DNA of 34,755 bases. It comes from Bacteroidota bacterium. Lineage in GTDB: Bacteria > Bacteroidota > Bacteroidia > Bacteroidales > JAIFNC01. Numbering within the stretch: position 1 is the stretch's first letter; the number at the start of each line of letters is the position of its first letter. Position numbers and translations under genes: made by a program. The DNA lies in assembly GCA_020047935.1 (NCBI GenBank), contig JAIFNC010000284.1, positions 1 to 34,755 on the forward strand, written 5' to 3'. This document shows, in pieces, positions 9,128 to 28,608 of this stretch. A model generated the notes under the pieces. That model worked only from the letters and a program-made list of their open reading frames with translations. It searched no databases and was not told where the DNA came from.

Positions 9128-9517
9128 CTAATTATCTTCGTCAATAATTTCAATCATTTTAAAAGGTATTTTTAAAATCGACTGATAGTCTTCGCCGGCT
9201 TCCAGCATATCTTCGTCGTCTTCTTCGTAATACCAATTAATAAGCACACTTTCGGTTGAGCGCTGTACTGCTTCCAATTTTTTGAAAACATCCAATATAC
9301 ATTTCGACGAACTTGTATTGAAGTATTCTAACTGAATTTTAACCGTTGTTTTAGAGGCTGGAGTAGCAGCATACTTATCTAACCAATCGACAAGCGGTTT
9401 ATAAAATTCAATTGAATTTTCCGGTATCGAACGTCCTTTTATTTCAATTAGACCTTCTTCGGCATTGAAATTAACTGTTGGGGTTTTACCCGTTCCTTTT
9501 AATGCAATAGATTCCAT
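9128..9517 (-). CDS. siaC: SiaC family regulatory phosphoprotein (DUF1987), copy 1
   Basis: TP.V.F, GRSIPEN..EFY.P, YFNTSSSK (Thr68) and WYYEEDDEDMLEAGEDY. Confidence 0.9.
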   Translation of the reverse strand: MESIALKGTGKTPTVNFNAEEGLIEIKGRSIPENSIEFYKPLVDWLDKYAATPASKTTVKIQLEYFNTSSSKCILDVFKKLEAVQRSTESVLINWYYEEDDEDMLEAGEDYQSILKIPFKMIEIIDEDN

Positions 9518-9533
9518 TTTTCGATGTTAATTT

Positions 9534-10079
9534 TTAAGTTACTACAGCTTCCAAACAAAAAAAGCAATAATCATTTTTCATCGGATTAAAAGAATAGTTA
9601 AGCTTGTTTCCGGTTCGCTTTGCTATGTCTATAATGCCTAATCCGCCGCCGCCTTTTTCTGAAAACTCTTCGTTACCAAGTATTATTCTGTATAGTTCTT
9701 TTAATTCTTCAGTCGATAAAAAGTTTATTTGGTCTATTCTATCGCGAAGTACTTTTATTCGATTATTTTTAATAAAGTTACCTGTTGAAAGCAAATAGCC
9801 CGTTTCTAATTTTCGAATTACAAATATAATAAATTTTCCGCCATTTTCCGCTGTATTTCCCGGGGTTAAATCTACGTGGTGAAATAAGTTTTGAATAGCT
9901 TCTACCGATATATTGTACAATTTTTTCGAAACCCCCGGTTTCTCATCAATAACGTGCAATTGGTGCTCAATGGTATTAAGAACCTGATCTATAACGTTGG
10001 ATGAAATATCGCCTTTGTAGCTAAATATCACATTGCCTTTTATCTGTTCGTCGTACCACACATTGATATCGAATTCCAT
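9534..10079 (-). CDS. siaB: SiaB family GHKL-type Ser/Thr protein kinase (DUF6272-like)
   Basis: N-box EAIQNLFHH, TGNFI, G-box EKGGGGLGIIDIAKRTG, and position directly upstream of siaC. ATG 10079 is preferred because the GTG at 10106 overlaps the promoter. Confidence 0.85.
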   Translation of the reverse strand: MEFDINVWYDEQIKGNVIFSYKGDISSNVIDQVLNTIEHQLHVIDEKPGVSKKLYNISVEAIQNLFHHVDLTPGNTAENGGKFIIFVIRKLETGYLLSTGNFIKNNRIKVLRDRIDQINFLSTEELKELYRIILGNEEFSEKGGGGLGIIDIAKRTGNKLNYSFNPMKNDYCFFCLEAVVT

Positions 10080-10105
10080 TGAATTTTTCTGTTTAATCCT
10101 TTGCA

Positions 10106-10113
10106 CAAATATA
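10106..10113 (-). promoter_or_regulatory. Bacteroidota sigma-A -7 element for siaBC
   Basis: TATATTTG on the minus strand, 27 nt upstream of ATG 10079. Confidence 0.6.
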
Positions 10114-10158
10114 AGCTTTTTTTTATATAAAACCTAAAAGTACAATATTTGCGCCAAA

Positions 10159-11316
10159 TTAATTTTCGGAAGTTTTGTATTCTTTATGAGAACCTTTAAA
10201 AACACGAAATTCACGGAACTTGCATTCTATTTTGCCGTTCAGTAAACTGTAGGTTTTGGTGTGTTTTAGTTCTAAATGCTTAAATGCATACTCGTTACCC
10301 GACAAAATCCAAGCGGTATAATTGGTATATTTATGTTTTAATGTATCGCCTATTTCTTTGTACAATGCGTTTATGTCGTCGGTCGTAATTCGCTCGCCAT
10401 AAGGCGGATTGGTAATTATAAAGCCGTTTTCGGTGGGTGCTGTGGTATTTTCGAATTTTTCTTTTTTAATTTCTATTCGTTTGCTAAAACTTGCGTTGGC
10501 AATGTTTACTTTTGTTGCTTGCAATGCCTTGCTGTCCGAATCGGACCCAAAAATCATTATATTACCGTCGTATTTAATTTCGTTTTCTTGCGCGTGGTCC
10601 AACACTTTTTCCCAAATATCTTTGTCAAAGGTTATCCATCGTTCAAAACCAAATTCGGGGCGGTATATTCCGGGCGCAATATTATATGCCATCATGGCAG
10701 CTTCAATAAGCAAAGTGCCCGAACCGCACATAGGGTCGTAAAGCGGAGTTTTTTTGTCCCAGCCCGAAAGCGACAACATGCCGGCAGCAAGTACTTCATT
10801 GAGCGGTGCGGCAAATGCATCGGTACGGTAACCGCGTCGGTTAAGCGATTCGCCTGAACTGTCGAGCGATACGGTACAAACATTTTCGGCTATGTGCACA
10901 TTTATTCGTACATCGGGGTGTTTGATATCTACATTGGGGCGTATACGATGAATTTCGCGCATTTTATCAACAATGGCATCTTTGGTTTTAAGTGCCACAT
11001 AACCCGAATGATTAAAAAGTTTCGAAAAAACAATACTGTCAACCGAGATTGTCTGCAATCGGCCAATATAATCTTGCCAATTCATGGCAAAAAGTTTTTT
11101 GTATAAGTCTTCAACGCCCGAAATTTTAAATGTTTCGAGTTCTACCAAAACACGTATTGCGGTTCGCAAATTTAAATTCGCTTTGTACATTATTTCGGTA
11201 TCGCCTTCAAATGAAACGGCTCGGTTTAACTGCGTTACATTCGATGCGCCAATAGCATTTATTTCTTCTGCCAACACATTTTCAAGACCCAAAAGGGTTT
11301 TTGCCAACAACTTCAT
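10159..11316 (-). CDS. rlmL: THUMP-domain class I SAM-dependent rRNA methyltransferase (RlmL/YpsC-like)
   Basis: GLE.VLAEE, SLDSSGESL.RRGYR, APLNEVLAA, DPMCGSGT and NPPYGER. Confidence 0.88.
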   Translation of the reverse strand: MKLLAKTLLGLENVLAEEINAIGASNVTQLNRAVSFEGDTEIMYKANLNLRTAIRVLVELETFKISGVEDLYKKLFAMNWQDYIGRLQTISVDSIVFSKLFNHSGYVALKTKDAIVDKMREIHRIRPNVDIKHPDVRINVHIAENVCTVSLDSSGESLNRRGYRTDAFAAPLNEVLAAGMLSLSGWDKKTPLYDPMCGSGTLLIEAAMMAYNIAPGIYRPEFGFERWITFDKDIWEKVLDHAQENEIKYDGNIMIFGSDSDSKALQATKVNIANASFSKRIEIKKEKFENTTAPTENGFIITNPPYGERITTDDINALYKEIGDTLKHKYTNYTAWILSGNEYAFKHLELKHTKTYSLLNGKIECKFREFRVFKGSHKEYKTSEN

Positions 11317-11434
11317 ATTCGGGAATTTGGTTACTTTCTTGCAATTAGAATAATGAAAAACCCTAATTGTTTTGCAAACTTTACCAATTGGTTAGAACAA
11401 AACAAGTAGGAATAAATTTTCTTTTTCAGAAATG

Positions 11435-11442
11435 CAAAAGTA
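11435..11442 (-). promoter_or_regulatory. Putative -7 promoter element for the methyltransferase gene
   Basis: TACTTTTG on the minus strand in the intergenic region. Confidence 0.5.
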
Positions 11443-11492
11443 CAGTTTTAAAACGGAAAAACCTTAATTTCATTCGTAAATACTTGATTTTC

Positions 11493-12515
11493 TTATTTGA
11501 AAATTTCCGCAAGTTTTTTATCCAGTTCTTCGCCTCTTAGTCCTACGGCTAAAACATTGCCTTGCGGGTCGATGAGCACCGTGAATGGAATGCCTTCAAT
11601 TTGGTATTTTTCAACTACTTCCGAGTCCCAATATTTTAAATCGCTTACATGTATCCACGCTAATTTATCGGCAATAATGGCATTTTTCCAAGCTGCTTCT
11701 TCGCGGTCCAGCGAAACACCAAAAATTTCAAATCCTTTCGATTTGTATTTTTGATACAAAGCTACCAAATTTGGCGCTTCCTTTCGGCATGGTCCGCACC
11801 ACGATGCCCAAAAATCGATAAGTACGTATTTGCCTTTAAGCGATGAAAGCTTAACTTCCGTTTTGCTTGTATCGAGCAAAGCAATTTCCGGGGCAGGGGT
11901 ACCGGGGCTTAAAAAACTTGTTTTATCGAGTTTCGAATTTAATTCCATAACCAGCATATTATCGGAATACTTGGGGCTCAGGCTTGCCGAAAGTTTTTTC
12001 AACAATTCGGCATCGGTTTCCGGATTTAATTGGTCGATAAAAAATAAAGCACTAAGCGAATTGAGGTTGCCCGACAAGGTAGTTCGCAAATAGTTTTGTT
12101 TTTCGGTTTCAATCTGCTTTTGTAATTGTTCGAGTTTTTCCGAATATTTATCGAGTTCCGAAAAGGTTTTATAAATAAACTGAGTACCCGGCGAACCCTT
12201 AACGGTTGGTTTGTAAATGGCATTGGCATCGGCTGCAATTTCAAGTTGCTCTCCAATTTCCGGAACTATTATTAAATATAAATCTTCGGTAAAGCGAACC
12301 CTGAAATAGTCCGATTTATCTATTTTAAATTCAACTTTGAACTCGCCTTTGTCGTTAATAGGTGCTTTTGCATGCTCAAAGCCGGAAATTACGTGGTCTA
12401 TAACTACTTCTGTAAAACTTCCGCCGGTTATGGTACCTTTAATTTTTACATTTGCTTGGCTATATGCAAGTGTGGCAAGCAATGCTACGGCAATGCCGGT
12501 AAACAATTTTTTCAT
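11493..12515 (-). CDS. TlpA/ResA-family thiol-disulfide oxidoreductase with DUF4369-like N-terminus
   Basis: Signal peptide; LIDFWASWCGPCRKE, IFGVSLD and GIPFTVLID. Confidence 0.92.
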   Translation of the reverse strand: MKKLFTGIAVALLATLAYSQANVKIKGTITGGSFTEVVIDHVISGFEHAKAPINDKGEFKVEFKIDKSDYFRVRFTEDLYLIIVPEIGEQLEIAADANAIYKPTVKGSPGTQFIYKTFSELDKYSEKLEQLQKQIETEKQNYLRTTLSGNLNSLSALFFIDQLNPETDAELLKKLSASLSPKYSDNMLVMELNSKLDKTSFLSPGTPAPEIALLDTSKTEVKLSSLKGKYVLIDFWASWCGPCRKEAPNLVALYQKYKSKGFEIFGVSLDREEAAWKNAIIADKLAWIHVSDLKYWDSEVVEKYQIEGIPFTVLIDPQGNVLAVGLRGEELDKKLAEIFK

Positions 12516-12626
12516 TCGGGTCGTAATTAATTTGTAAAAAGTGTATAACCAATATTAGCTTATAACGAAATTGATGCTTGTTTAGTATAGCTGCCGCAAA
12601 ATTGTACTGTATGCTTGTAATAAATA

Positions 12627-12875
12627 CTAAAATGGCAATTTCGATTGGTATACTTTGTATTTAAGATAACTGCTAAGTTGTTCTTGAAGAATTAGTTGAT
12701 TTGCTAAACGACAATAACCGATTGAATAAAACTCCCGACCGTTATAAAACAAGTGGTAACCGTCTGCGAATACACTTTCTTGTATGGCAAATGCTTTGTG
12801 CGGTTCTTTTTTTAGTCTGTATTGAATTCTTTTTTTGAAGCTTTCGTTGTCGTCTCTTAACTGCTTAATTGCCAT
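12627..12875 (-). CDS. Small hypothetical protein (82 aa)
   Basis: ATG-started ORF filling an otherwise empty intergenic gap in the same orientation as its neighbours; no recognisable motif. Confidence 0.45.
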   Translation of the reverse strand: MAIKQLRDDNESFKKRIQYRLKKEPHKAFAIQESVFADGYHLFYNGREFYSIGYCRLANQLILQEQLSSYLKYKVYQSKLPF

Positions 12876-13091
12876 AGCGTTTTAAATTTTGTTTTGGCAT
12901 TTTTAGTGCAAAGCCTTAATTTTACTACCTTATATAGGCATTTTCATTTGCAATTGTACAAAAAATACTACAAATTCTAAAGAAAACACCGGTAAAAAGT
13001 TGAAAAGTTATTAACAAATTTTGCTATGCTATTTAAATTCAATAATTTATTATTTCAATAAAGAAACGAGGCTTTTTCCGGTTGGTGTTAG

Positions 13092-14114
13092 CTAAAAAAT
13101 GAAATTAAAGATAAAGCCTACCATTAAAATTCCGGTGGCTACAATTCCAACAAAGGTAAAAATTAAAGGCATTTTTAGCACTTTCTTCAGAATAATAATT
13201 TCGGGCAACGATAAGCCTATGGTGGACATCATAAACGCCAATGCGGTGCCCAACGGAACGCCTTTTTCAATTAAAACGCTTACAATTGGAATAATTCCGG
13301 CGGCGTTGGAATAGAGCGGAACCCCAATTAATACCGACAACGGAACCGAATACCAATTGGCTTTGTCCATAATCGAAACCATAAAGTTTTCGGGTACAAA
13401 ACCGTGCATTCCTGCGCCAATGCCTACCCCAATGGTTATGTAAATCCATACTTTACCAACAATTTCTTTTACTGCAATAAATCCGAATTGTATGCGATTT
13501 TCTATGGTCAGCTTCTCTTCAATTGCTTCGTTTTTTCCGAAGCGGGTTTTGTAAACCCAATCGGCAACCCACTTTTCAAGTTTTAGTCTTCCGATTAGCC
13601 AACCCGAAAATATGGCAATTATTAAACCGGTGGAAACGTAAATTGCGGCAACCTTCCAACCGAACATGCCGAATAGCAGTATGATAGCCACTTCGTTTAT
13701 CATTGGGGCGGCAATTAAAAACGAAAATGTTACGCCCAACGGAACACCGCTTTCAACAAAACCTAAGAATAAGGGTATGGCAGAGCACGAACAAAACGGG
13801 GTTACTATACCCAGCAAGCTTGCCAAAACATTTCCGGTAAATAACGACTTGCCTTCGAGTGCTTTGCGGGTGCGTTCGGGGGTAAAATAGGTGCGAATTA
13901 TTCCTACAAAGAAAATTATTAGCGCAAGCAACAACAGCACTTTCGGAACTTCAAAAATAAAAAATCGGACGCTTTCGGTAAAATGTGCGCCTTGTTCCAT
14001 TTTTAGCACCTTATCTATCAGCAAATCGGTTAATAACTGAAGATTTTTATAAATCAAAAACCAAATTGGCAGTAGTATTGCCGGTATTAAAAAGGCTTTT
14101 TGTTTAGCATTCAT
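13092..14114 (-). CDS. ArsP/DUF318 family permease
   Basis: Multi-TM protein with TPFCSCSAIPLF, FSFLIAAPMINE, GVPLYSN and GLSLPE motifs. Confidence 0.88.
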   Translation of the reverse strand: MNAKQKAFLIPAILLPIWFLIYKNLQLLTDLLIDKVLKMEQGAHFTESVRFFIFEVPKVLLLLALIIFFVGIIRTYFTPERTRKALEGKSLFTGNVLASLLGIVTPFCSCSAIPLFLGFVESGVPLGVTFSFLIAAPMINEVAIILLFGMFGWKVAAIYVSTGLIIAIFSGWLIGRLKLEKWVADWVYKTRFGKNEAIEEKLTIENRIQFGFIAVKEIVGKVWIYITIGVGIGAGMHGFVPENFMVSIMDKANWYSVPLSVLIGVPLYSNAAGIIPIVSVLIEKGVPLGTALAFMMSTIGLSLPEIIILKKVLKMPLIFTFVGIVATGILMVGFIFNFIF

Positions 14115-14174
14115 GGTAATTTTGTTTAATTTTTTATTTGTTGTAAGGTAATTAATCAGAAATAAAAAGTTGAA

Positions 14175-14681
14175 TTATTCTGAGTTTATAGTATTTTTCA
14201 ATAGTTCTTTTTCCAAATCGTAGGCAGATAAAAAACCGGTATGCCTAAAAAATTCTTTGCCGGTTTTATTTAGCAATATTTGAGTTGGAATAGCAGAAAT
14301 TCCATAATACTTAGCAAAATCGACATTTTCGGGCAGAGTAACGTTTATAAACAGTACATTTACCTTGTCCGAATAATTTGCAGTTATTTCTTCCAACACT
14401 TTTTCCATACGTTTGCAGGCAGCACAGTTCAGTGCGCCAAATTCCAAAAACGTGGTTTCGTATTGTTGTCCGTTTTTGATATAATTGAATTGCTTTTGAA
14501 TGTTATTTTCAACCTTGTTTTTCGTTTCGCCGGTAGTTTGTTGTTGTATAAGTTTTGAAGAATAGGCAGTTAGCCGGTTTTTAAAAACAAACAGCGAAAC
14601 AATAAAGGCAAGCGAAAACACGAGAAAAAATATTGAAAAAGCAAGACTAATCTTGCTTTTTTTGGGTTCCTGCTTGGTCAT
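14175..14681 (-). CDS. Membrane-anchored thioredoxin-family protein
   Basis: N-terminal TM helix, EFGALNCAACKRME (CxxC), cis-Pro IPTQ and GKEFFRHTGF. Confidence 0.85.
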   Translation of the reverse strand: MTKQEPKKSKISLAFSIFFLVFSLAFIVSLFVFKNRLTAYSSKLIQQQTTGETKNKVENNIQKQFNYIKNGQQYETTFLEFGALNCAACKRMEKVLEEITANYSDKVNVLFINVTLPENVDFAKYYGISAIPTQILLNKTGKEFFRHTGFLSAYDLEKELLKNTINSE

Positions 14682-14690
14682 TTCTGCAAT

Positions 14691-15452
14691 TTAGGGTTTA
14701 ATTTTTTCGAACAAACCCATTAGTTTGGTTTGCAGTATGTTTTTAATTTCCTGTTCGTGCTCGCTTATAGGTTTCACCGGAATTAAATCGGTAACTTCCG
14801 CCGGTTGCAAATTGGAACTAAACGCTGTATGTATAGCCCCCAATAAACTATGGGCAACAGTTTCTTTGCTTTCGGCTTCGGTTAGCCCCATTTGTTTGCC
14901 AATTTCGACCATTTCGAACCACTGAAACCAAAAATACGTAGGCAACATTGCCGATGCAATGGCGTAGGCTTCCAGCTTATTTTCGGCAGTTTCAAAAGTT
15001 TTACCTAAAGTGCCCAAAATAGAAATTAACTCGTCTTTTTGCTCAAAACCTTCGGCAAAACTTATTGGGTTATAGCCTTGGTTTATAAACGATGTAGCGT
15101 TGGGTATTAAGCGAGCAACTTTTTTGGTACCGAGTGTGGTGCTTATTTTTTCGATATTAATTTTGGGTGCCAACGAAACAAAGGTACTTTCCGGACGAAC
15201 AAAAGGCTGAATTTTGCCCAACGTTTCCATCATTACCGGCGGATGAAGGGCTATAAAAACAAGTCCCTGTTCGGATACCGTTTTTAAATCGGTAACGGTA
15301 ATTTCCGGAAACAAGGTTTTAAGGTTTTCTGTTACTTGGTTGTTGGTATCAAACACCGAAACATTTGCCAACGAAATGTGCTTGTTTTGAAAAGCTTGCA
15401 AAAATATTTTGGTTATTCTGCCGGCACCGATAAAGCTGATGGTATTTTTCAT
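14691..15452 (-). CDS. Pyrroline-5-carboxylate-reductase-like NAD(P)-binding oxidoreductase (divergent)
   Basis: Rossmann ISFIGAGRIT, RLIPNA and a helical dimerisation-type C-terminus. Canonical ProC SGSGPA and SPGGTT motifs are absent. Confidence 0.78.
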   Translation of the reverse strand: MKNTISFIGAGRITKIFLQAFQNKHISLANVSVFDTNNQVTENLKTLFPEITVTDLKTVSEQGLVFIALHPPVMMETLGKIQPFVRPESTFVSLAPKINIEKISTTLGTKKVARLIPNATSFINQGYNPISFAEGFEQKDELISILGTLGKTFETAENKLEAYAIASAMLPTYFWFQWFEMVEIGKQMGLTEAESKETVAHSLLGAIHTAFSSNLQPAEVTDLIPVKPISEHEQEIKNILQTKLMGLFEKIKP

Positions 15453-15526
15453 TTGTGTAAATTATTTGGATATTAAACTTGGTTCTTTACTGTCAATTTT
15501 TGTTTTTATTAAATTTTCTATTTGTT

Positions 15527-15546
15527 ATTTTGTTAAATATCGAAAT
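15527..15546. promoter_or_regulatory. Degenerate second copy of the operator-like palindrome (ArsR/SmtB-type suspected)
   Basis: ATTTTGTTAAATATCGAAAT matches the palindrome at 16708 at 16/20 positions and lies ~75 nt upstream of the P5CR-like start. Confidence 0.5.
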
Positions 15547-15606
15547 AGAATAATAAAAAAAATGTATATCCGTAATCACTGACGGTTATGTTTTGTTCTT
15601 ACTAGT

Positions 15607-15752
15607 ATTGACCCCCAACCCCCTGAAAGTGGGCTTTTTAGAGCAGTTTAAATTTTCAATATTCATCTTCAATTTGACACTCTGAATCTATAAATTTGCA
15701 ATAATCTTAGTGAATGTTCGAAAAAGCCCCTCTCAGGGGGTTGGGGGTCGAT
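15607..15752. repeat. REP doublet / REPIN-like GC-rich inverted repeat
   Basis: Arms ATTGACCCCCAACCCCCTGAAAGTGGGCTTTTTAGAGCA and TGTTCGAAAAAGCCCCTCTCAGGGGGTTGGGGGTCGAT (~38 bp, 4 mismatches plus 1 indel) around an AT-rich ~69-nt spacer. Confidence 0.8.
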
Positions 15753-15838
15753 TTGACACATTTCAGGAAAGAGTTCTGCCATATGCTTGTCATTATTTAA
15801 AAACAATTTGAGCCATAGCGAATACACATTAAAAAAAA

Positions 15839-16558
15839 TTAGTTCAGTAAAAGCTTCTGAATATAGAAAATATACACATAATACAAGCCCACCAAAATAA
15901 ATATTGCAGCTACCACGCGGTTAAACCATTTTTGAAACACTTGTATTTTGTTGTAGAAACCGCCAATGCTCGACACACTGAATGCCAACAGATAGGCAAT
16001 TATGATTACAGGTAAGCCGGTTGCAAAGGCAAAAGCAATGGGTAAATATAAGCCCGAAGCACTTGCAATGGTTAGCGGAATTAGCATTCCGAAAAACAAC
16101 ACACCACCGTATGGGCAAAATGCCAGCGCAAACAACATTCCCAGCAGCAGGGCACTTAAACTGCTTCCGTTCTTGGATTTTATTTGCATTTTTTCGGTTA
16201 GCTTATTAAACGACGGAAAATTGATTGTAAAAATATCGAGCATAAAAATGCCAATTATAATGAGCAGCGGGCCTAATATTTTTTCGCCGTTTGCCTGAAA
16301 AAGCTTGGCAACTTCGAATTTACTTGCCCCGAAATACAAAATTAGCCCCAATGAAGTGTACGAAATAGCCCTTCCTAAGGTATAAATAATTCCGTTCAGG
16401 AAAATTTTGCGTTTATTGGTCAGTTCTTTGCTAATGTAGGCAATAGCGGTAATGTTGGTAGCTAAAGTACATGGGCTAATGGAGGACATTAAGCCTAAGA
16501 TAAATGCGTATAATAGCGGAGCTTGTGCGCCGTCGGCCAGGTTTTGTAATAATTCCAT
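15839..16558 (-). CDS. ArsG-family / CcdA-DsbD-like transmembrane protein
   Basis: About six TM helices with ISPCTLATNITAIAYISK, YTLGR and AFCPYGGVLFFGMLIP (two membrane Cys adjacent to Pro). Confidence 0.82.
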   Translation of the reverse strand: MELLQNLADGAQAPLLYAFILGLMSSISPCTLATNITAIAYISKELTNKRKIFLNGIIYTLGRAISYTSLGLILYFGASKFEVAKLFQANGEKILGPLLIIIGIFMLDIFTINFPSFNKLTEKMQIKSKNGSSLSALLLGMLFALAFCPYGGVLFFGMLIPLTIASASGLYLPIAFAFATGLPVIIIAYLLAFSVSSIGGFYNKIQVFQKWFNRVVAAIFILVGLYYVYIFYIQKLLLN

Positions 16559-18470: not shown

Positions 18471-19835
18471 ATGCGAATAAATAAATTACTCGAAAGATAC
18501 GTTGAATTTTTCCGAAGAAAAATGTTTAATAGCCCAAGCAGCCTATTGGATACGGTTGATTTGTGGAGAAACTTATTTTTTTTCCGGATTGTATTGGTAA
18601 TTCTGCCCGTTTCGGTGGTAGTATATATATTGGGTGCTACTGCCGGTATTTTGGCAAAAATGTATGGGCTTATTTTTTTCGATACCGTGGGTATGCTTAT
18701 TATCATATTTATTGCCTTCGATTCAAGTTTTTCAATTTTATTCAAAAAAATTCTGTTTCTGTTTACTATCTATTTTTTAGGTATTATGCTGTTTTATTAT
18801 TTAGGTTTTTTTGGTCCGGCGTTAATATACCTAATGGCTGTTTCAATTTTAAGTGCGTTAATTATTAACGAAAAAGTAGCTGTTGCTACCTTTGTTTTAA
18901 ATTTAGTGCTTTTTATATATTTTATTATTTCAGTAACATTAAATGTTGAATATAAGCCACTTATGATGAATGCTTCGGCTTTTTTGGCAGTGGGTATAAA
19001 TTTTATGGCATTTAACCTAATACTAATTATTGCGGTAATTTCATTAATCACCCATTTGCGCGAAGCGCTTACTTTACAGGGTAATATAAAAGCCAAATTA
19101 CTCGAAGAAAGTGCAAAACTGCAAATTGCAAAGCAACGTGCCGAACAAAGCGATTCGTTTAAGACCGGATTTATTCAGGATGTTTCGCACGGTATTCAAA
19201 TTCCGTTGAAAGCTATTAAAAGCTTTTCCGATTTGGTAAATAACGAAAATATTGAAATTGAAAAAAGACGCTATTTTATCGATATAATTTCGAGCAATGC
19301 CAAATTATTACAAAACATAGTTCACGATTTACAAATTCTTTCGACCATTGAAAACAACCAAGTAATAGTTACAAAAAGCACGATCGAACTTAATAAAGTT
19401 ATTGGTGAACTAATTACTGTTTTTTCTGAAGAATATAAAGATAAAAACATAGGAATTATTTTCAAACAAAAAATTGCCGACGGTCGCGACAACATTGAAA
19501 CCGACGAAGCGCTGCTTAAAAAAATTATCATAAATTTACTTTCCAATGCATTGAAATATACCGAATTGGGTTTTGTTGAAATTGGATATGTTTTCAGAAA
19601 TGAATGTATTGAAATTTTTGTCAAAGATACCGGTATAGGAATTGCACCTGAACAACTGAAAAATTTGTTTAACAGGTTTTATCGAGTTGAAAATGCAATA
19701 AACAGCCGACATGCCGGAACCGGTTTAGGCTTAAGCTTAGCACGAGCAAATGCGCAAGCCCTTGGTGGCGAGCTAACTTGTAATTCGATGTTGCATGTTG
19801 GTACTACATTTTACCTTAGCGTTCCGATTAAATAA
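18471..19835 (+). CDS. Membrane sensor histidine kinase (HisKA + HATPase), orphan, with atypical H-box
   Basis: About six N-terminal TM helices, H-box SHGIQIPL, N-box NLLSNALKYT, G1 VKDTGIGI, F-box FNRFYR and G2 GTGLGL. Confidence 0.88.
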   Translation: MRINKLLERYVEFFRRKMFNSPSSLLDTVDLWRNLFFFRIVLVILPVSVVVYILGATAGILAKMYGLIFFDTVGMLIIIFIAFDSSFSILFKKILFLFTIYFLGIMLFYYLGFFGPALIYLMAVSILSALIINEKVAVATFVLNLVLFIYFIISVTLNVEYKPLMMNASAFLAVGINFMAFNLILIIAVISLITHLREALTLQGNIKAKLLEESAKLQIAKQRAEQSDSFKTGFIQDVSHGIQIPLKAIKSFSDLVNNENIEIEKRRYFIDIISSNAKLLQNIVHDLQILSTIENNQVIVTKSTIELNKVIGELITVFSEEYKDKNIGIIFKQKIADGRDNIETDEALLKKIIINLLSNALKYTELGFVEIGYVFRNECIEIFVKDTGIGIAPEQLKNLFNRFYRVENAINSRHAGTGLGLSLARANAQALGGELTCNSMLHVGTTFYLSVPIK

Positions 19836-21533: not shown

Positions 21534-21571
21534 AAAAAAGACCCGATTCAAATTTGTAACGGGTCTTTTTT
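21534..21571. terminator. Bidirectional terminator between the convergent S8 and M18 genes
   Basis: AAAAAAGACCCG...CGGGTCTTTTTT. Confidence 0.85.
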
Positions 21572-21599
21572 ATTGTGTCAAATGCTTTACCGTAGATGG

Positions 21600-22904
21600 C
21601 TACAATTCATAAAAAGCATCAAAAACTTCTTTCATATACAAGTGGTCGGTTACACCCGAAAGTTCGCGAATTGAGTGCATGGCAAACATAGGGTTGCCAA
21701 CGTCAACGGTTGCTATATCGAGTTGCGATGTAGAAATATTGCCTAAGGTACTTCCGCCCGCAACATCCGACCTGTTTACAAACTTCTGAAACGGAATGCC
21801 TTTACTTTCGCACAATTGTGCAAAAACGGCTCCGGTAACGCCATCGGTAGTGTACTTTTGTCCGTTGTGTATTTTAATAACCGGTCCTTTGTTCATAATT
21901 GGTCGGTTCAACGGGTCGTATTTGTGTTCGTAGTTTGGGTGCAAGGCATGTGCCATATCGGCCGAAATCATAAATGATTGCGAAACAGCGCGGTAAAAAT
22001 CGTCCGTATCGCCACCCAAGGCTAATACTACCCGTTCTATAATGGTTTTAAGCACCGGTGCGGCTGCGCCTTGTTTTGTCTGGCTACCAACTTCTTCGTT
22101 ATCGAAAAATGCGGCAACACACGTAGCTTTTGCAGGCTCGGCATTTGCCAATGCAATTGCACTTGCATGAACCATAGCCAAATTATCGAGTTTTCCCGAC
22201 GAAATAAATTCTTCGTTTAATCCAACAAACGAACCTTTTTCAAACTCGAACAAGAAAAGCTCAAAATCCAAAATATCGGTCTGAGCCACGCCTGCTTCTT
22301 TTGCCAATAATGAAATAAGGTAATTCTCTTTTTCAAACGTGCTGTTAATCATACCTAAAATAGGCAAAACATCGGTTTGGGCATTAATAGGAGTTCCGTT
22401 GTTTACTTCGCGGTTCATATGTATTGCCAAGTTCGGAATATAGGCAATGGGTCGGTCGATGCGAATGTTTTTAACCGTGGGTTTTAAGGTGTTGTTTGAG
22501 CGCAACGAAATTCGACCTGCCAACGAAAGCGGACGGTCGAACCAAGTACTCATAATTATTCCGCCGTAGGGTTCGGTATTAAGCTTTAAGTAATTGCCGG
22601 CCACAACCCATTCGGGCGACGGCTTAATTTTAAACACCGGCGAGTCGGTATGTGCTGCAATTATCTTAAAACCATGTTCTTGTGGCTTACCGGTTCCGGC
22701 TATAAAACCAAACATTGCCGAACCGTTTTTGGTTACAAAATATTTTCCGCCCGGTGCAATGTGCCATTTGTCTTCAAATTTAAGTTCTTTAAATTCCTTG
22801 TAGCCCCAAATTTTTTCAAGGTTTTCAACTGCGTGAAAAGGAGTAGGGCTTGAGTAAATAAAGTTGATTAAATTCTGAGCAAGGTCTTTTTCCTTTTGTT
22901 TCAT
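21600..22904 (-). CDS. apeB: M18 family aspartyl aminopeptidase (ApeB-like)
   Basis: SPTPFHAV, AHTDSP, LDNL, FDNEEVGS, SADMAHA.HPNY, GGSTLG and MHSIRE. Confidence 0.92.
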   Translation of the reverse strand: MKQKEKDLAQNLINFIYSSPTPFHAVENLEKIWGYKEFKELKFEDKWHIAPGGKYFVTKNGSAMFGFIAGTGKPQEHGFKIIAAHTDSPVFKIKPSPEWVVAGNYLKLNTEPYGGIIMSTWFDRPLSLAGRISLRSNNTLKPTVKNIRIDRPIAYIPNLAIHMNREVNNGTPINAQTDVLPILGMINSTFEKENYLISLLAKEAGVAQTDILDFELFLFEFEKGSFVGLNEEFISSGKLDNLAMVHASAIALANAEPAKATCVAAFFDNEEVGSQTKQGAAAPVLKTIIERVVLALGGDTDDFYRAVSQSFMISADMAHALHPNYEHKYDPLNRPIMNKGPVIKIHNGQKYTTDGVTGAVFAQLCESKGIPFQKFVNRSDVAGGSTLGNISTSQLDIATVDVGNPMFAMHSIRELSGVTDHLYMKEVFDAFYEL

Positions 22905-23033
22905 ATGGTAGTGTTTTATGGTATGAGTGCATGAATTTTTCGTAAATATAGAAAAAAGTACGAAAGTTTAACTTCAAAAATTCGAAATACATTAAATTTG
23001 GCATTGTAAATTTGCAAATGCCTGAATTTCAGC

Positions 23034-23076
23034 AAAAAAAAATAAACCGAATTGATTGAATTCGGTTTATTTTTTT
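23034..23076 (-). terminator. Terminator of the Kelch lipoprotein gene
   Basis: A-tract-TAAACCGAATT-GATTG-AATTCGGTTTA-T7. Confidence 0.85.
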
Positions 23077-23102
23077 AATTGAAAGTATGTTGGGCAACCG
23101 GT

Positions 23103-24623
23103 TTAACGCTTATATTGCCAAATATCGGTTTTTTCCAAGTAGGTTTTGCCGCCAATTATGTAGCCATAGGCACCAACCGAAAAGGCAACTGCTGAATGTC
23201 GTGCAACGGAAGGCAAGGATGAAAGGGTAGTCCATGAATCGGTTCCCGGGTTGTACCGATACCAATCGGTTTTCGATTCAACACCATCGGTACCCAACCC
23301 TACATATGCCTCGGTTGAAAGTACCAGTATGCTTGCTTTGCTTCGTTTTCCGCCTTTAAATGCATTTAATTTCGACCATTCGTCGGTAGCGGGATCGTAG
23401 CGCCAAAAATCGTCGAATAGTTCGGTTTCCGATTCGCCCAAACCTACAAAACCATGTTCCGATGTGCTGTAGCCAACAGCAAAAGCGCGAGCGCCGCCTA
23501 CAAAATTTTTCTTTTTGCTCCACGAATTAATTTCGGGGTCGTAGCTGTAAACTGAACTTAATGCGCTGCCAAACTGACCGCAAACTACGTAGCCTTTGCC
23601 TTTCAGGCTAAAAGAAGCAGCATTTTTAACCGCATTTTGATTGTAAAAAACGGCTCTTGAAGCCCAAATGTTTTTAGCATAGTCGTATTCGTAAAAGTCT
23701 GAATACATATCTAAACCGCTTTCGCCACCACCGGCAAATACTCTTTTATCAACCACAAACGCAAATGCACCGTTTCTGCTTCCTTTAAAATTAGCCATTT
23801 GTGTCCATCCGTTCAAACGAGGGTCGAACCTCCAAATGTCGTTTTTTGAACCTTGTCCGTCGTCGCCTGTGCCGTAATAACCATAATCGTTTACCGAAAA
23901 AGCTATTGCACCAACTCGCGGGCGCAAAGAATTTGACGCTTTTTCAACCCAAATATTTTCGGATGCCAATGTTTTAAACGTTACATTGCGGTCGTAATCG
24001 AGTTTTTTGTTGTAAATTATAAATCCGCGAATATTATAATTTGTTTGTGCATCGAGGTTTGAGATTGGAATAACAAACGATTGACTGGTTGCCGACCGAC
24101 CCATGGCTATATTATTGTCTTGTGTAGTAGGGTCGGCATTATGCGACCAGCAAATGCCAAAATTTTCAGCTTCGCCTTTGGTTATTATCAGTTGTCCGGC
24201 AACTAAGGCACCGGAAGGCGAAATTTGATATACCGAATCGATATAAACCGTTGGAAATTCATATTTCAGGTTAAGTGTTTTTACCTCGCCGTATATTGTT
24301 TCAGTTGTCGAAGAACCATAGGCACGATAATAATAAGTGGTAGCTTTTAGACCGGTTACTGCCGATGAATAGTCGCCGCTTGTAACGAGTGCACCATGAG
24401 CCGTAAATGATGAATTTTCGAGGTTCGGTTCAGTTTCGGTAATTGACCAACAGTGCCCATGCTCAATTATTTGCGCACCGGAGGTTTCAATATGACCTTT
24501 TAAGGTAGTAATGGTTCCGGAAACTGAGTATTCTTCGGTTGAAACGGTAAAGAGCGAATCGCCCTCGGTACATGAATTACTTAGTATACCTATGAGCAGT
24601 ATAAAAATTAAATAACGTTGCAT
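23103..24623 (-). CDS. Lipoprotein with two Fn3/Ig-like domains and a C-terminal Kelch beta-propeller
   Basis: Lipobox LSNS-C; two 'G.CWS...P...T.Y..R.Y/F' modules; six Kelch repeats (R..A.AF....GY.G.G....D.W.YDP....W). Confidence 0.88.
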   Translation of the reverse strand: MQRYLIFILLIGILSNSCTEGDSLFTVSTEEYSVSGTITTLKGHIETSGAQIIEHGHCWSITETEPNLENSSFTAHGALVTSGDYSSAVTGLKATTYYYRAYGSSTTETIYGEVKTLNLKYEFPTVYIDSVYQISPSGALVAGQLIITKGEAENFGICWSHNADPTTQDNNIAMGRSATSQSFVIPISNLDAQTNYNIRGFIIYNKKLDYDRNVTFKTLASENIWVEKASNSLRPRVGAIAFSVNDYGYYGTGDDGQGSKNDIWRFDPRLNGWTQMANFKGSRNGAFAFVVDKRVFAGGGESGLDMYSDFYEYDYAKNIWASRAVFYNQNAVKNAASFSLKGKGYVVCGQFGSALSSVYSYDPEINSWSKKKNFVGGARAFAVGYSTSEHGFVGLGESETELFDDFWRYDPATDEWSKLNAFKGGKRSKASILVLSTEAYVGLGTDGVESKTDWYRYNPGTDSWTTLSSLPSVARHSAVAFSVGAYGYIIGGKTYLEKTDIWQYKR

Positions 24624-24860
24624 GGTTAAATGTTTTTCAAATATTTTCGTAAATTTACTGCAATTTTAATACCTTTCAGTAATCTTTCCTATATTTAAAC
24701 GATTTTTTTTTAATTTTTGTTCGAATAATTCCTTGAATTTACGCTTGAGAATAAAATATTTAAAAAAGTTCGGTTCATTTTTTTTATTTTAAAAGAATTA
24801 CGTATCTTGTTTCGAGTTTTAGAATAAAAAACATTGGCTAAATTCTAATGTATAAGTTTT

Positions 24861-27800
24861 ATGCAATATAATAAAAGTTATTTATTTATAGCTATTAGTA
24901 TTTTAATGTTTACGAACAATATTTTTTCTCAAAATATTGTTTTCTCTAAACTTTCAATTGACGATGGCTTATCGCACAGTGTAGTATATAATGTTTGTCA
25001 GGATAACAATGGTTTTTTGTGGTTTAGCACGCAAGACGGAGGGTTGAACAGGTACGATGGTTATAGGTTTAACTCGTTTTTTACCAATCGGCGCGATTCA
25101 GGCTCTATTTCGAGCAACAATTTAAATAAATTGGTATTAGATGCCGATGGCAATTTATGGATAGGTACTTGGGGCGGAGGTGTTAATAGGTATAACTCGC
25201 GAACCGACCTTTTTACTAATTTCAAAAACGATCCGCTTAACTCCAATAGTTTGTCGGGCGATAAAATTCAAGCATTGGCTTTGGATGCCGCCGGAATAAT
25301 TTGGATAGGAACCGCCGGTACCGGTTTAAACAGCTTAGACCCCAAAACAAAAAAAGTTGTTAGGTATTTAAATAATCCGAATGACAATACCAGTATTGTA
25401 AACGATAGAATTTGGTCTATTTTGCCCGATGATAAAAATGGTGTATGGGTAGGGACTGAGCAAGGGTTGAATTATTTGGAAAAAAACAAGTCGAACTTTA
25501 AACAAATAACTTTTGAAATAGGAATCAATGAAGTTGGATTTCAAATTAGAAGTTTAGCTTACGATGCATCAGGTAATTTGTGGGTAGGTACTTCAAAAGG
25601 TATTGTAATTATAGATAAAGCCGGCAAACATTCGGTCTTATATCCTTATCCTGCTGATATTAGCGATAATCAGAAAAATAACATAAACGTTGTTTATAAA
25701 GATGCATTAAACAATATGTGGGTAGGAACCCAGTCGGGCGGACTTTCGCTGTACAATACGAAAACCAAAACCTTTAGCAATTATTTGAATGATTTAAACG
25801 ACCCTAATTCAATAAGTTTTAACGATGTACGCGATATAATACAAGATAAATCCGGAATTTATTGGGTTGGTACACGCGGAGGTGGGGTAAATAAGTTCGA
25901 TTTACGACCAAAAAAATTCAGCGCCATATATCCGAGCAAAGAAAAAGGGCTTTCGGGCAACCGAGTTAGAGCAATTCTGGCAACTCCCGAAGGCGATTTG
26001 TGGCTGGGAACCGATTTTAGCGGGTTGAATCGATACAATAAAAAAACCGGTGAATACACCTATTATAACGTGTCGCAGAGCAGGGGCTTTAAACTTAGCA
26101 GTAATCGCATCCGTTCGTTAGCGCGCGACCACGAAGGCAAAATTTGGGTAGGAACAGACGAAGGCGGATTGAATGTTATTGATTTGAAAAAAAATGAAGT
26201 ACTGGTTTATCAGCAAGAAAATACCCGATTAGCATCGAATGAAGTTTCTTGTTTATATTTCGATTCCAAGCACCGAATGTGGGCAGGAACAAAAAACGGC
26301 ATTTCGCTTTTTGACCTAAACAATAGAAAAATAAGAACTTATAAGCATTCGCCCTCAAATATGGGCAGTTTAAGCGATAACAGAGTACTTAGCATAATTG
26401 AAGATAAACAAGGGTTTATTTGGGTAGGTACCGATAATGGCTTGAACAGATACGATTCGGAATATGGTTTATTTGTTAAATATTATCAGCAAATTGATAA
26501 CGAACATTCGATATTAGATAACGATATTTATTCAATGACTATTGATAATTTAGGCCAATTATGGATAGGAACAGCGGGCGGATTAAATTTATATAATCCT
26601 AAAAAAGACCATTTTACGAACTTTGTAAATAACGAAATTTCATTTGGTGGCATAGTATATGGCTTGTTGCCCGACAATAATAACAATTTATGGCTTGGTA
26701 CCCTAAACGGATTGGCGCGTTTTTCAATTGATAATCATACGTTTAGAATGTTCGATGTGTCGGATGGTTTGCAGAGCCGCGAATTTTTGCAAGGTTCTTA
26801 TGCAAAAGACAGCATCGGATATTTGTATTTTGGTGGCATCCGCGGATTCAACTCTTTCCATCCCGACAGCATTTTTGAAAGCATGTTTAAACCCCAAGTT
26901 ATGATTACCGAATTTAAGGTGCTCAACAAATTGGTTCGTCCGGGCGTTACGTCTGTTATAACAGATGGTTTACCTTATGTAAAAGATATTTACTTAAGCT
27001 ACGAAGATAAAATCTTTTCGTTCGAATTTGCTGCTTTAGACTATACTTCTTCAGAAAAAAACAAGTACGCCTATATAATGGAAGGTTACGACAAAGAATG
27101 GACCCAGGCAGGAACCCGACGTTTTGTCATGTACTCCTCGTTGCCTTCCGGTACTTATACTTTTAAAGTGAAGGCAACAAATTCCGATGGTATTTGGAAC
27201 GAAACTCCGATTGAAATCAACATTCATGTTAAACCCCCGTTTTGGCAAACATGGTGGTTTTATTTGTTTGTTTTCGTTTTTATTGTAGGCAGTTTTTTCC
27301 TTTATTTGAATATTAAAATAAGAACACTTACCGAACAGAGGCGCCAGCTCGAAATTGCTGTGGCGAACAGAACTAAAGAAATACGCCGAGCAAAAGAGCA
27401 AATTGAAATTCAGCATGAATTGGTTACTGCACAAAACATTAAAATAAAAGACAGCATTCATTATGCAAAACGTATACAAAATGCAATGCTGCCTACAACC
27501 GAAGCATTCGAAAAAAACTTCGCCGATTATTTTATTCTTAATAAACCACGCGACATTGTAAGTGGCGATTATTATTGGATAAAAGAAATGGATGGCAGAG
27601 TTTATTTTGCCGTTGCCGATTGCACCGGACATGGAGTGCCGGGAGCTTTCTTAAGTTTGTTGGGCATGGCTTTTATGAATGAAATTATTAATAACCGCAA
27701 AATTCGAAATGCTGCCGAAATGCTTAATATTCTGCGCGATAATATTAAAAATGCACTGCATCAGAGTGGTAAGTCAGGCGAATCGTCCGATGGAATGGAT

Positions 27801-28196
27801 GTAGCGGTATGTATTATTGATATTGAAATGAATACCTTGAATTTTGCAGGTGCCTATAATCCGGTATATATATTCCGTAACAATGAACTTATTTCGTTAG
27901 TAGCTGACAAAATGCCAATCGGAATTTATTATAAAAGTGAAAGACCATTTACAGCAAGAGAAATTGAACTGAAAGAAGATGATACAATTTACATATTTTC
28001 AGACGGATACGCTGACCAATTTAGCGAAACTACCGGACGAAAAATGCTTAGAAGCGGATTTAAAAATTTGCTCCAAAGTGTACATAAACTGCCAATGAAA
28101 GAACAAAAAGAAAATTTGGAACGTGTTTTGTTAGAATGGCAAGGTAGCTTGCACCAAATTGATGACATATTAGTTATCGGTTTAAGGTATTTTTAA
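24861..28196 (+). CDS. Sensor PP2C/SpoIIE phosphatase with periplasmic two-component-regulator beta-propellers and Y_Y_Y domain (SiaA-like role)
   Basis: About 14 'D..G.LWIGT..GGLN.Y' repeats, Y_Y_Y (YAYIMEGYDKEW, LPSGTYTFKVKA), TM after PPFWQTWWF, and PP2C motifs RDIVSGDYY, VADCTGHGVPGAF, DGMD, FSDGYADQ and QIDDILVIG. Confidence 0.93.
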   Translation: MQYNKSYLFIAISILMFTNNIFSQNIVFSKLSIDDGLSHSVVYNVCQDNNGFLWFSTQDGGLNRYDGYRFNSFFTNRRDSGSISSNNLNKLVLDADGNLWIGTWGGGVNRYNSRTDLFTNFKNDPLNSNSLSGDKIQALALDAAGIIWIGTAGTGLNSLDPKTKKVVRYLNNPNDNTSIVNDRIWSILPDDKNGVWVGTEQGLNYLEKNKSNFKQITFEIGINEVGFQIRSLAYDASGNLWVGTSKGIVIIDKAGKHSVLYPYPADISDNQKNNINVVYKDALNNMWVGTQSGGLSLYNTKTKTFSNYLNDLNDPNSISFNDVRDIIQDKSGIYWVGTRGGGVNKFDLRPKKFSAIYPSKEKGLSGNRVRAILATPEGDLWLGTDFSGLNRYNKKTGEYTYYNVSQSRGFKLSSNRIRSLARDHEGKIWVGTDEGGLNVIDLKKNEVLVYQQENTRLASNEVSCLYFDSKHRMWAGTKNGISLFDLNNRKIRTYKHSPSNMGSLSDNRVLSIIEDKQGFIWVGTDNGLNRYDSEYGLFVKYYQQIDNEHSILDNDIYSMTIDNLGQLWIGTAGGLNLYNPKKDHFTNFVNNEISFGGIVYGLLPDNNNNLWLGTLNGLARFSIDNHTFRMFDVSDGLQSREFLQGSYAKDSIGYLYFGGIRGFNSFHPDSIFESMFKPQVMITEFKVLNKLVRPGVTSVITDGLPYVKDIYLSYEDKIFSFEFAALDYTSSEKNKYAYIMEGYDKEWTQAGTRRFVMYSSLPSGTYTFKVKATNSDGIWNETPIEINIHVKPPFWQTWWFYLFVFVFIVGSFFLYLNIKIRTLTEQRRQLEIAVANRTKEIRRAKEQIEIQHELVTAQNIKIKDSIHYAKRIQNAMLPTTEAFEKNFADYFILNKPRDIVSGDYYWIKEMDGRVYFAVADCTGHGVPGAFLSLLGMAFMNEIINNRKIRNAAEMLNILRDNIKNALHQSGKSGESSDGMDVAVCIIDIEMNTLNFAGAYNPVYIFRNNELISLVADKMPIGIYYKSERPFTAREIELKEDDTIYIFSDGYADQFSETTGRKMLRSGFKNLLQSVHKLPMKEQKENLERVLLEWQGSLHQIDDILVIGLRYF

Positions 28197-28221
28197 AATT
28201 TAATATTCGATTAATTTATTT

Positions 28222-28608
28222 ATGGAAACTATTAAAATAGCCGGAAATAGAGTGCTTCCCGATATTTATTTCGATGCGGTCAAGAATTCATTTCTGGTGG
28301 CCGGACGCTCATGCCCCGAAGATGTATCGAAATTTTACATGCCTCTAATTGAATGGTTGGAGGAATACGGAAAAAATCCGAACCCTAAAACCGTATTTGA
28401 TTTCAAACTTACTTACTACAATACGGCTTCGGCTAAAATGCTGCTTTCGCTTATGCAAAAAATAGAAGAAATGCATACCGAGGGTAAAGATGTTTTGATT
28501 CGTTGGTATTTTCCGGACGATGATGAAGATTTGGAAGAAGCCGGTGAAGATTTTAAGGATATTTTGGAAGTTCCTTTCGAACTTATAAGCTACGAATACG
28601 AAGATTAA
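28222..28608 (+). CDS. siaC: SiaC family regulatory phosphoprotein (DUF1987), copy 2
   Basis: GRSCPED..KFY.P, YYNTASAK (Thr68) and WYFPDDDEDLEEAGEDF; starts 25 nt after the phosphatase stop. Confidence 0.9.
   Translation: METIKIAGNRVLPDIYFDAVKNSFLVAGRSCPEDVSKFYMPLIEWLEEYGKNPNPKTVFDFKLTYYNTASAKMLLSLMQKIEEMHTEGKDVLIRWYFPDDDEDLEEAGEDFKDILEVPFELISYEYED

Follow-up and report, generated by a model that had tools for sequence, protein, structure and literature searches.

In Pseudomonas aeruginosa, the SiaABCD system is composed of the PP2C phosphatase SiaA, the kinase SiaB, the phosphoprotein SiaC and the diguanylate cyclase SiaD, and phosphorylation of Thr68 blocks the binding of SiaC to SiaD, as described in the available excerpts of PMC7647112 and PMC8457831; the phosphorylated T68 peptide, found experimentally, is printed in PMC7647112. 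Related genes lie in contig JAIFNC010000284.1 of a Bacteroidales genome (assembly GCA_020047935.1), whose 34,755 nucleotides (nt) are here called the window. Two nodes are encoded there, a SiaB-family kinase with SiaC-1 (node 1) and a SiaA-like sensor phosphatase with SiaC-2 (node 2), and the gene that meets SiaC-1 tail-to-tail encodes an ABCG-type exporter belonging to the ABC (ATP-binding cassette) class. Our judgement leans, if only modestly, towards an expanded SiaABC-type threonine partner-switch network, with two of its nodes in the window and this exporter as the target of SiaC-1.

Compared with SiaABCD, the window encodes a homologous SiaA-type PP2C, a homologous SiaB-type kinase and SiaC proteins with Thr68 in the same motif. 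The gene order PP2C-SiaB-SiaC-X is kept in a paralogous operon of the same genome (contig C178), and the modelled contact with the target uses the Thr68 face of SiaC. However, there are no cyclase or cyclic di-GMP (c-di-GMP) genes here, and an ABCG-type exporter with a TerB-like/FHA-like module stands in the SiaD position. The system is also multiplied, with at least nine SiaC genes and about 30 phosphatases in the genome, and an acidic loop present in the Bacteroidota SiaCs is missing from P. aeruginosa SiaC.

RsbU/RsbV/RsbW and SpoIIE/SpoIIAA/SpoIIAB are the classical STAS switches. HsbR/HsbA/HsbD and BgrSTUWV are cyclase-linked switch systems, according to the excerpts of PMC8457831. In all of these, as is proposed here, a small alpha/beta protein is phosphorylated by a GHKL-type kinase and dephosphorylated by a PP2C phosphatase, and its binding partner changes accordingly; in contrast, the switch protein here is SiaC/DUF1987, no sigma factor is implicated and a transporter is the candidate partner. 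Within the excerpts of PMC3138270 and PMC5549992, the closest known case of a pump of this kind under phospho-control is Rv1747, an ABC exporter from Mycobacterium tuberculosis that has FHA domains at its N-terminus and is regulated by the Ser/Thr kinase PknF. Both are ABCG-like exporters with an N-terminal cytoplasmic regulatory module and are encoded beside a Ser/Thr phosphorylation system, and in the window exporter, too, an FHA-type fold may form part of this module. By way of difference, the window exporter has an FHA-like domain without a Pfam FHA match, without evident phosphothreonine-binding residues and outside the modelled interface; the kinase is SiaB-type instead of Hanks-type, and a separate adaptor, SiaC, is interposed.

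Switch proteins of the window and of the genome

Both SiaC proteins match the Pfam family SiaC (PF09345, formerly DUF1987; gathering cut-off 24.5 bits), SiaC-1 with 154 bits (E 1.7e-45) and SiaC-2 with 126.4 bits (E 6.2e-37). SiaC-1 aligns without gaps with P. aeruginosa SiaC (6KKO_C, E 1.6e-17), and its N-T-S-S motif is in register with the T68 phosphopeptide. Both lie below the NCBIfam equivalog NF038265 (biofilm regulation phosphoprotein SiaC; cut-off 150 bits), SiaC-1 with 98.1 and SiaC-2 with 78.6, and from their sequences they are best regarded as family members and not as functional equivalents of Pseudomonas SiaC. The two align with each other without gaps at 41% identity (50/122, BLASTP), close to the value of about 40% counted by hand in an earlier note on this DNA, and both contain N67-T68, as that note had read. 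Among 23 aligned SiaCs, N67 is invariant and T68 is present in 21, with Ser in the other two. Nearly invariant in the same sequences is a strongly acidic loop common to Bacteroidota SiaCs, situated at residues 98-111 of SiaC-1 (DNA at about 9185-9226) and at the same residues of SiaC-2. Within the order, SiaC-1 has orthologues in other families at 66-79% identity.

The kinase of node 1 matches DUF6272 (PF19788) with 116.9 bits and aligns end to end with the solved SiaB (6KKO_A; E 1.3e-13, residues 16-189). It passes the NCBIfam model NF038262, 'SiaB family protein kinase' (142.7 bits, cut-off 85), and stays under the stricter SiaB equivalog NF038264 (69.9 against 225). Its open reading frame (ORF) opens at a GTG and encodes 190 amino acids (aa), whereas the first in-frame ATG, at 10079 (181 aa), is the coordinate used in the earlier note. 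The phosphatase of node 2 has a C-terminal SpoIIE/PP2C domain at about residues 840-1110 (70.9 bits, Pfam), whose best solved relative is SiaA (6K4E_A, E 2.1e-31). Four Asp-bearing metal-binding motifs are aligned between them; the metal-binding Asp residues of SiaA are named in the excerpt of PMC7647112. Against the whole-protein SiaA equivalog NF038263, the phosphatase reaches 182.6 bits at model positions 380-656, under the cut-off of 700 because its sensor part differs. Hydropathy gives a single internal transmembrane (TM) helix at 796-821, so the Reg_prop beta-propeller and Y_Y_Y part is presumably periplasmic and the PP2C domain cytoplasmic. All four genes lie where the earlier note had placed them, with Pfam scores far beyond chance, and the Pfam matches, the NCBIfam SiaB family and the alignments to 6KKO and 6K4E bear out its claim that the parts are true SiaA-, SiaB- and SiaC-type proteins.

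No kinase gene stands beside SiaC-2, and SiaC-1 and SiaC-2 belong to different paralogue groups. The best match of SiaC-2 in relatives (61% identical) lies in a SiaB-SiaC-SiaC locus, followed by SiaCs of operons of the type PP2C-SiaB-SiaC-ABC (47-57%; 55% for that of contig C178) and then by SiaC-1-type proteins (about 40-45%). In a tree of 23 SiaCs, SiaC-2 is grouped with the operon-type clade with 92/92 support; the tree is otherwise poorly resolved (1 of 20 branches starred, bootstrap unsettled), and only this placement is used. The PP2C-SiaC-2 architecture has no counterpart among the 30 SiaC-2-like loci examined. SiaC-2 would therefore seem to be a lineage-specific, recent duplicate of an operon-type SiaC through which a further envelope sensor would reach a target of the same kind. 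The pair is flanked by a divergent Kelch-repeat protein (23103-24623, minus strand) and, 338 nt downstream of SiaC-2, by a CarboxypepD_reg and PQQ_2 beta-propeller protein (28946-31180, plus strand); the SiaC-2-like loci of relatives have neither flank.

The assembly, in which the window is contig C292, measures 3.3 Mb in 337 contigs and is rated 70% complete. The earlier note had proposed a family search across this genome and its relatives; in this genome, it returns nine SiaC matches in the contigs with the Pfam model, hence at least nine SiaC genes, seven DUF6272 domains in five genes and 33 SpoIIE matches, with no GGDEF match. Two of the DUF6272 genes encode tandem SiaB-SiaB proteins of 377 and 383 aa (C313:4641-6173 and C43:2637-3788). 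Out of 32 SpoIIE ORFs, 30 match the window PP2C at E 1e-40 to 1e-95; one of the remaining two does so at only 4e-11, and the other is a fragment without a match to it. These numbers support the many-input network that the note had suggested. The roughly 30 SiaA-like PP2C phosphatases carry varied sensor parts, including Reg_prop/Y_Y_Y, PAS and GAF. The genome holds one STAS match and one strong HATPase_c_2 match, so that STAS/RsbW-type switching is set aside as the use of so many phosphatases, and the SiaC proteins appear to be the obvious substrates of the expansion. On contig C178, genes for a GAF-PAS-PP2C protein, SiaB, SiaC and an ABC protein are all co-directional, and on contig C36 a PP2C-SiaC pair is directly followed by an unsplit PP2C-SiaB-SiaC group. 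In four relatives, SiaB-SiaB-SiaC is found in a single chain of 505-519 aa; in one of these, a receiver-adenylate/guanylate cyclase gene lies about 550 nt after the fusion.

The earlier note saw no GGDEF gene in the window, and there is none; GGDEF, EAL and PilZ each give no match in the 70%-complete genome, in searches that were positive in control genomes. In a sample of the order comprising this genome and 40 others, each from a different family, SiaC is present in 20 of the 41 genomes, with 2 to 21 copies each. GGDEF occurs in two genomes, both without SiaC, and in none of the 20 that carry SiaC, among them 100%-complete assemblies in one and six contigs. The absence of a SiaD-type output holds for the whole group.

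The ABCG-type exporter as candidate output

The gene just outside the region covered by the earlier note, the exporter gene, has the best claim to encode the missing output. In one chain, Pfam matches ABC_tran (109.1 bits) followed by ABC2_membrane (64.6 bits), which places the protein in the ABC-2/ABCG type; its best NCBIfam match, TIGR00955, scores 253.8 bits, under the cut-off of 736. The exporter of the C178 operon is a paralogue, 49% identical over 790 aa including the N-terminal extension. The genome encodes four exporter paralogues, of which the C151 copy (4837-7786) is read in two overlapping frames, 4837-5895 and 5894-7786, and may reflect a frameshift, a pseudogene or an assembly error. 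The N-terminal module is matched by 3416 proteins at E up to 1e-5, and the best 120 listed bear generic names or none.

The strongest reason to regard the exporter as an output instead of a bystander is that it occupies the SiaD position of homologous cassettes. Among 400 high-quality genomes of the phylum, 24 carry SiaC, and the best locus of each was inspected by Pfam. The gene after SiaC encodes a GGDEF protein in four loci, a HisKA-HATPase_c protein in five, the exporter in seven and another or unclear product in eight. The GGDEF loci are canonical PP2C-SiaB-SiaC-GGDEF operons; one has a Reg_prop/Y_Y_Y sensor like that of the window phosphatase, and one of the four cyclases is read in two frames. 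The seven exporter loci are co-directional or convergent, and in two of them the ORF is cut by the locus end, with ABC_tran after an extension of about 265 aa. In another class of the phylum, SiaB-SiaC is followed at five loci by a histidine kinase (HisKA-HATPase_c, 329-354 aa), a second non-cyclase candidate output of SiaC. Elsewhere in relatives, an nSTAND1-PP2C protein is followed by a SiaC-TPR fusion of 469 aa, and a 740-aa protein with a C-terminal SiaC is encoded upstream of a PAS histidine kinase.

Gene order and co-occurrence point in the same direction. For SiaC-1, the best 80 of 578 confirmed relatives in a species-representative collection were inspected, nearly all from Bacteroidales/Bacteroidota metagenome-assembled genomes and 68-79% identical. 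SiaB lies directly upstream in 79 of the 80 loci, forming a conserved two-gene unit, and of the 72 loci whose downstream sequence extends for 1.5 kb or more, 53 have a convergent exporter gene no more than 1.2 kb away. Among the best 30 exporter loci, 11 have a convergent SiaB-SiaC and five are co-directional PP2C-SiaB-SiaC-ABC; such co-directional operons also make up 17 of the 30 SiaC-2-like loci (contig C178 and 16 relatives). In the order sample, with family membership set at E up to 1e-60, the exporter is found in 23 of 41 genomes, namely in 20/20 with SiaC against 3/21 without it; with 36-43% identity, the copies of these three SiaC-less genomes rank with the most divergent of the full-length matches. 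Of 120 high-quality genomes sampled across the phylum, eight have SiaC and four the N-terminal module; all four carry SiaC, in each case with a SiaC gene adjoining, and two of them have that single SiaC. In one single-contig genome, both of the two SiaC genes flank exporter paralogues.

The extension of the exporter contains two folded parts. The model of residues 1-260, built on a 31-row alignment, has a mean predicted local distance difference test (pLDDT) score of 87.4 and a predicted template-modelling (pTM) score of 0.81. Residues 3-141 are helical and are matched by 2H5N, a functionally uncharacterized P. gingivalis protein (Z 9.7, root-mean-square deviation (rmsd) 3.6, 118 residues aligned) and a tellurite-resistance-type protein (2OU3; Z 7.1), although Z values of this size are not decisive for helical bundles. 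TerB (PF05099) matches the window exporter weakly (18.5 bits, cut-off 24.4) and the C178 paralogue clearly (36.6 bits). For residues of about 150-240, the top Foldseek rows are FHA domains (E 5e-3 to 0.1), and nearly all 50 VIA rows are FHA (Z 6.2-7.6, rmsd 2.0-4.2, 70-89 residues aligned), a range of Z that can reflect a common arrangement; the structure searches with the model suggest an FHA-like fold.

FHA domains hold phosphothreonine through a conserved Gly-Arg, Ser-x-x-His and Asn. These residues are not evident among the conserved columns of the 31-row alignment, in which only N201, G216, P226 and Y228 of the FHA-like part are nearly invariant. Pfam FHA gives no match in the exporter at E up to 10, and a profile of the region against the PDB returns only the MEK1 FHA domain, weakly (E 0.52). 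Docking of phospho-SiaC on the FHA-like domain was considered and is judged the less probable main mechanism, on account of the lacking Pfam match, the binding residues that are not evident and the choice of the TerB-like helices by the complex model.

This model of exporter residues 1-250 with SiaC-1 scores 0.83 in all three runs, whereas the best of three controls scores 0.00. The mark applied to the score is reached by 116/157 solved complexes and 2/215 mismatched pairs, a benchmark that is only rough here because of the custom alignments. Between runs, at least 98% of the contacts agree, and the pLDDT of the partner is at least 90. On SiaC-1, the modelled interface comprises residues 63, 65-72 (including N67 and T68), 75 and 101-114, the acidic loop, which makes up half of the modelled interface with the exporter. 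On the exporter, it comprises residues 64-82 and 114-125, both in the TerB-like domain. The model thus supports binding of SiaC-1 to this domain via its Thr68 face. No SiaC complex with a TerB-like domain is among the solved structures matched in searches with SiaC-1 and the exporter N-terminus.

In a check of conservation kept apart from the model, identity to the consensus was compared between 22 exporter interface positions and the remainder of residues 1-141. In the three exporters whose genomes lack SiaC, it is 0.14, 0.14 and 0.00 within the interface, with 0.52, 0.44 and 0.25 outside. Of 28 exporters from SiaC-bearing genomes, 27 have 0.32-0.77 at the interface against 0.47-0.76 elsewhere, and one is likewise degenerate (0.14 against 0.48). 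The paralogues on contigs C46 and C151, which have no SiaC neighbour, retain the contact helix.

Coordinates and main properties of the features in the window
Feature	Position	Strand	Description
ABCG-type exporter, candidate output	5913..8966	+	1017 aa; tail-to-tail with SiaC-1; 260-aa N-terminal extension; TerB-like helical domain ~1-141, FHA-like beta domain ~150-240, ABC_tran 264-414, ABC2_membrane 563-779; then a soluble loop of ~200 aa and the last TM helix 981-1001 (hydropathy)
Terminator-like hairpin	9059..9097	-	18 pairs and T run, just past SiaC-1, between the convergent genes; consensus scan only
SiaC-1	9128..9517	-	129-aa SiaC-family phosphoprotein; Thr68 in N-T-S-S motif; conserved acidic motif 98-111
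SiaB-family Ser/Thr protein kinase	9534..10106	-	16 nt upstream of SiaC-1; predicted from sequence
THUMP/RlmL-like RNA methyltransferase	10159..11316	-	Co-directional, 52 nt upstream of kinase gene; Pfam
SiaA-like sensor phosphatase	24861..28196	+	1111 aa; N-terminal hydrophobic leader, Reg_prop repeats, Y_Y_Y, TM helix, coiled stretch, PP2C
SiaC-2	28222..28608	+	128-aa SiaC-family phosphoprotein; 25 nt after phosphatase gene; Thr68 and acidic motif

The methyltransferase upstream of the kinase reaches 370 bits with the NCBIfam model RlmK/RlmL, under its cut-off of 466, and is probably a syntenic neighbour outside the switch. Its gene lies upstream of the SiaC-1 unit in 50 of the 75 orthologous loci where this can be tested, yet neither the operon-type modules nor those of other orders contain it; it was rejected as an output and is treated as inherited synteny. 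Between the two nodes, an envelope redox/permease run occupies 11493-16558 on the minus strand (a TlpA-like thioredoxin of 340 aa, an 82-aa ORF, an ArsP_1 permease, a thioredoxin of 168 aa, a P5CR-like reductase and a DsbD_2 protein). A MASE11-HisKA-HATPase_c histidine kinase is encoded at 18471-19835 on the plus strand, with no receiver gene beside it in the window.

Proposed mechanism and competing explanations

Beyond the observed gene identities, copy numbers, GGDEF absence, gene order and co-occurrence, and the modelled SiaC-exporter contact, we infer the activity of the kinases and phosphatases, the partners on which each protein acts and the consequence for transport. In node 1 (9128-10106), the SiaB-family kinase would phosphorylate Thr68 of SiaC-1, and at least one of the roughly 30 SiaA-like sensor phosphatases from other loci would dephosphorylate it. 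The target of SiaC-1 would be the exporter encoded tail-to-tail with it (5913-8966) and not a diguanylate cyclase, and SiaC-1 would dock on the cytoplasmic TerB-like N-terminal domain via the surface that bears Thr68 and the acidic loop. The Thr68 face could bind either the kinase or the TerB-like domain, and the phosphorylation state would decide whether SiaC is present on the pump, thereby gating export. Meanwhile, node 2 (24861-28608), with its envelope-sensing Reg_prop/Y_Y_Y PP2C and SiaC-2, would add a further input; for its kinase, SiaC-2 would depend on another locus, and its most likely target would be one of the genome's four exporter paralogues. More tentatively, and with rather less assurance than the assignment of the SiaC-1 target, SiaA-SiaB-SiaC may be seen as a portable cassette whose target is the product of the fourth position, be it a diguanylate cyclase, as in Pseudomonas and part of the Bacteroidota, a histidine kinase, as in others, or an ABCG-type exporter, as in this class. 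In Bacteroidales free of c-di-GMP, SiaC might then gate the pump directly through TerB-like docking, with dozens of phosphatases converging on few SiaCs and four pumps, a control of export that would need neither second messenger nor transcription factor.

Several observations weigh against the exporter as the target. In the window, it is convergent with SiaC-1 with a terminator-like hairpin between them, and the two are not co-transcribed. Among the 72 SiaC-1-type loci, 19 have no convergent exporter within 1.2 kb (three of these have one within 5 kb), and in 16 the exporter is absent from the available flank of 2.4-8 kb. Likewise, 14 of the best 30 exporter loci have no SiaB-SiaC within 1.5 kb; two of these 14 run into a contig edge. 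Conservation of the THUMP gene is nearly as frequent as that of the exporter, so inherited synteny alone can preserve neighbours in this group, and the compared genomes are kin, not independent samples, so that the counts overstate independence. The complex is a model built from custom alignments, and the FHA-like domain lies outside its interface. SiaC binds the helical stalk of SiaD, according to the excerpts of PMC8457831, and part of the complex score may therefore reflect likeness to solved complexes of SiaC with helical partners. The genome is 70% complete, and the absence of GGDEF in this organism is accordingly not proven. A SiaC-ABC fusion is absent among the 14 longer SiaC-containing proteins found, which is weak evidence. 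Those 14 include SiaB-SiaC, TIR-SiaC and SLT-SiaC proteins; the fusions with a TIR or lytic transglycosylase domain, seen in metagenome proteins, are represented by one to three sequences each and may be miscalled genes.

The exporter could also be a mere syntenic neighbour, with the SiaCs of the order acting elsewhere, for example by titrating SiaB-like proteins that have a second partner, as anti-sigma kinases do. The convergent orientation with its hairpin and the similar conservation of the THUMP gene agree with such an account, as do the seven of nine SiaC genes in this genome without an adjoining exporter gene and the tandem SiaB-SiaB and SiaB-SiaB-SiaC fusions, which suggest roles of SiaB beyond phosphorylation. 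We nevertheless consider it unlikely, while giving it real weight, since paralogous exporters occur in two conserved arrangements, in one of which, a tight operon of co-directional genes, the exporter stands where SiaD would be. Exporter and SiaC co-occur at 20/20 against 3/21, single-SiaC genomes keep exactly the exporter-linked copy, the complex model passes while its controls stay at 0.00, and the predicted interface decays, with one exception among 28, only where SiaC is missing. It is also conceivable that the signal runs in reverse, the TerB-like/FHA-like module being an input that sequesters or releases SiaC according to the transport state, with the true output elsewhere. The modelled contact says nothing on direction, and the exporter does have two regulatory-looking domains; however, in homologous operons this position belongs to an effector enzyme, either a histidine kinase or, as in P. 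aeruginosa, a GGDEF protein, and the modules already have dedicated inputs in their sensor phosphatases, which leaves this arrangement highly improbable.

The earlier note had read the two loci as one SiaABC switch split in two, in which the kinase at 9534-10106 and the phosphatase at 24861-28196 serve both SiaCs and a non-cyclase target that is not specified. The window PP2C has no adjoining kinase and the window kinase no adjoining phosphatase, both SiaCs keep N67-T68 and the surrounding conserved surface, so that cross-phosphorylation is chemically plausible, and contig C36 has the same parts contiguously as PP2C-SiaC-PP2C-SiaB-SiaC. Yet with five SiaB-type genes, about 30 phosphatases and at least nine SiaCs in the genome, nothing marks these two loci as partners, which lie 15 kb apart among unrelated genes. 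Unsplit PP2C-SiaB-SiaC operons exist on contigs C178 and C36. The SiaB-SiaC-1 unit is self-standing in 79/80 loci, with no PP2C-SiaC-2-type locus nearby in relatives and no counterpart of that pair in the 30 loci compared. SiaC-2, of a different paralogue group, is nearer to the C178-operon SiaC (55%) than to SiaC-1 (40-41%). The split switch is thus not upheld and appears distinctly unlikely, and the two loci are better described as separate nodes of a larger network, with the exporter as the probable target of SiaC-1.

Significance for Bacteroidota

In Pseudomonas, SiaABCD is studied for its part in leading to c-di-GMP and to the formation of biofilms. The literature search, with subscription journals and supplements outside its scope, found the Pseudomonas papers and none on SiaC-type switches in Bacteroidota or on DUF6272, in agreement with the earlier note, which knew of no functional description in this phylum. 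The authors of the SiaABCD structure describe DUF1987 proteins as widespread and suggest that they modulate adjacent proteins (excerpt of PMC8457831). The present locus offers a concrete case of this suggestion, in a phylum largely without c-di-GMP signalling, and the modelled interface names specific residues, in the exporter helix 66-82 and the SiaC acidic loop 101-111. If the proposed contact is real, a partner switch would act directly on an ABC exporter, and a large exporter family known only by generic names would be assigned a regulator. An explanation would also be at hand for why SpoIIE-type phosphatases have expanded in those environmental Bacteroidales where STAS proteins are nearly absent.

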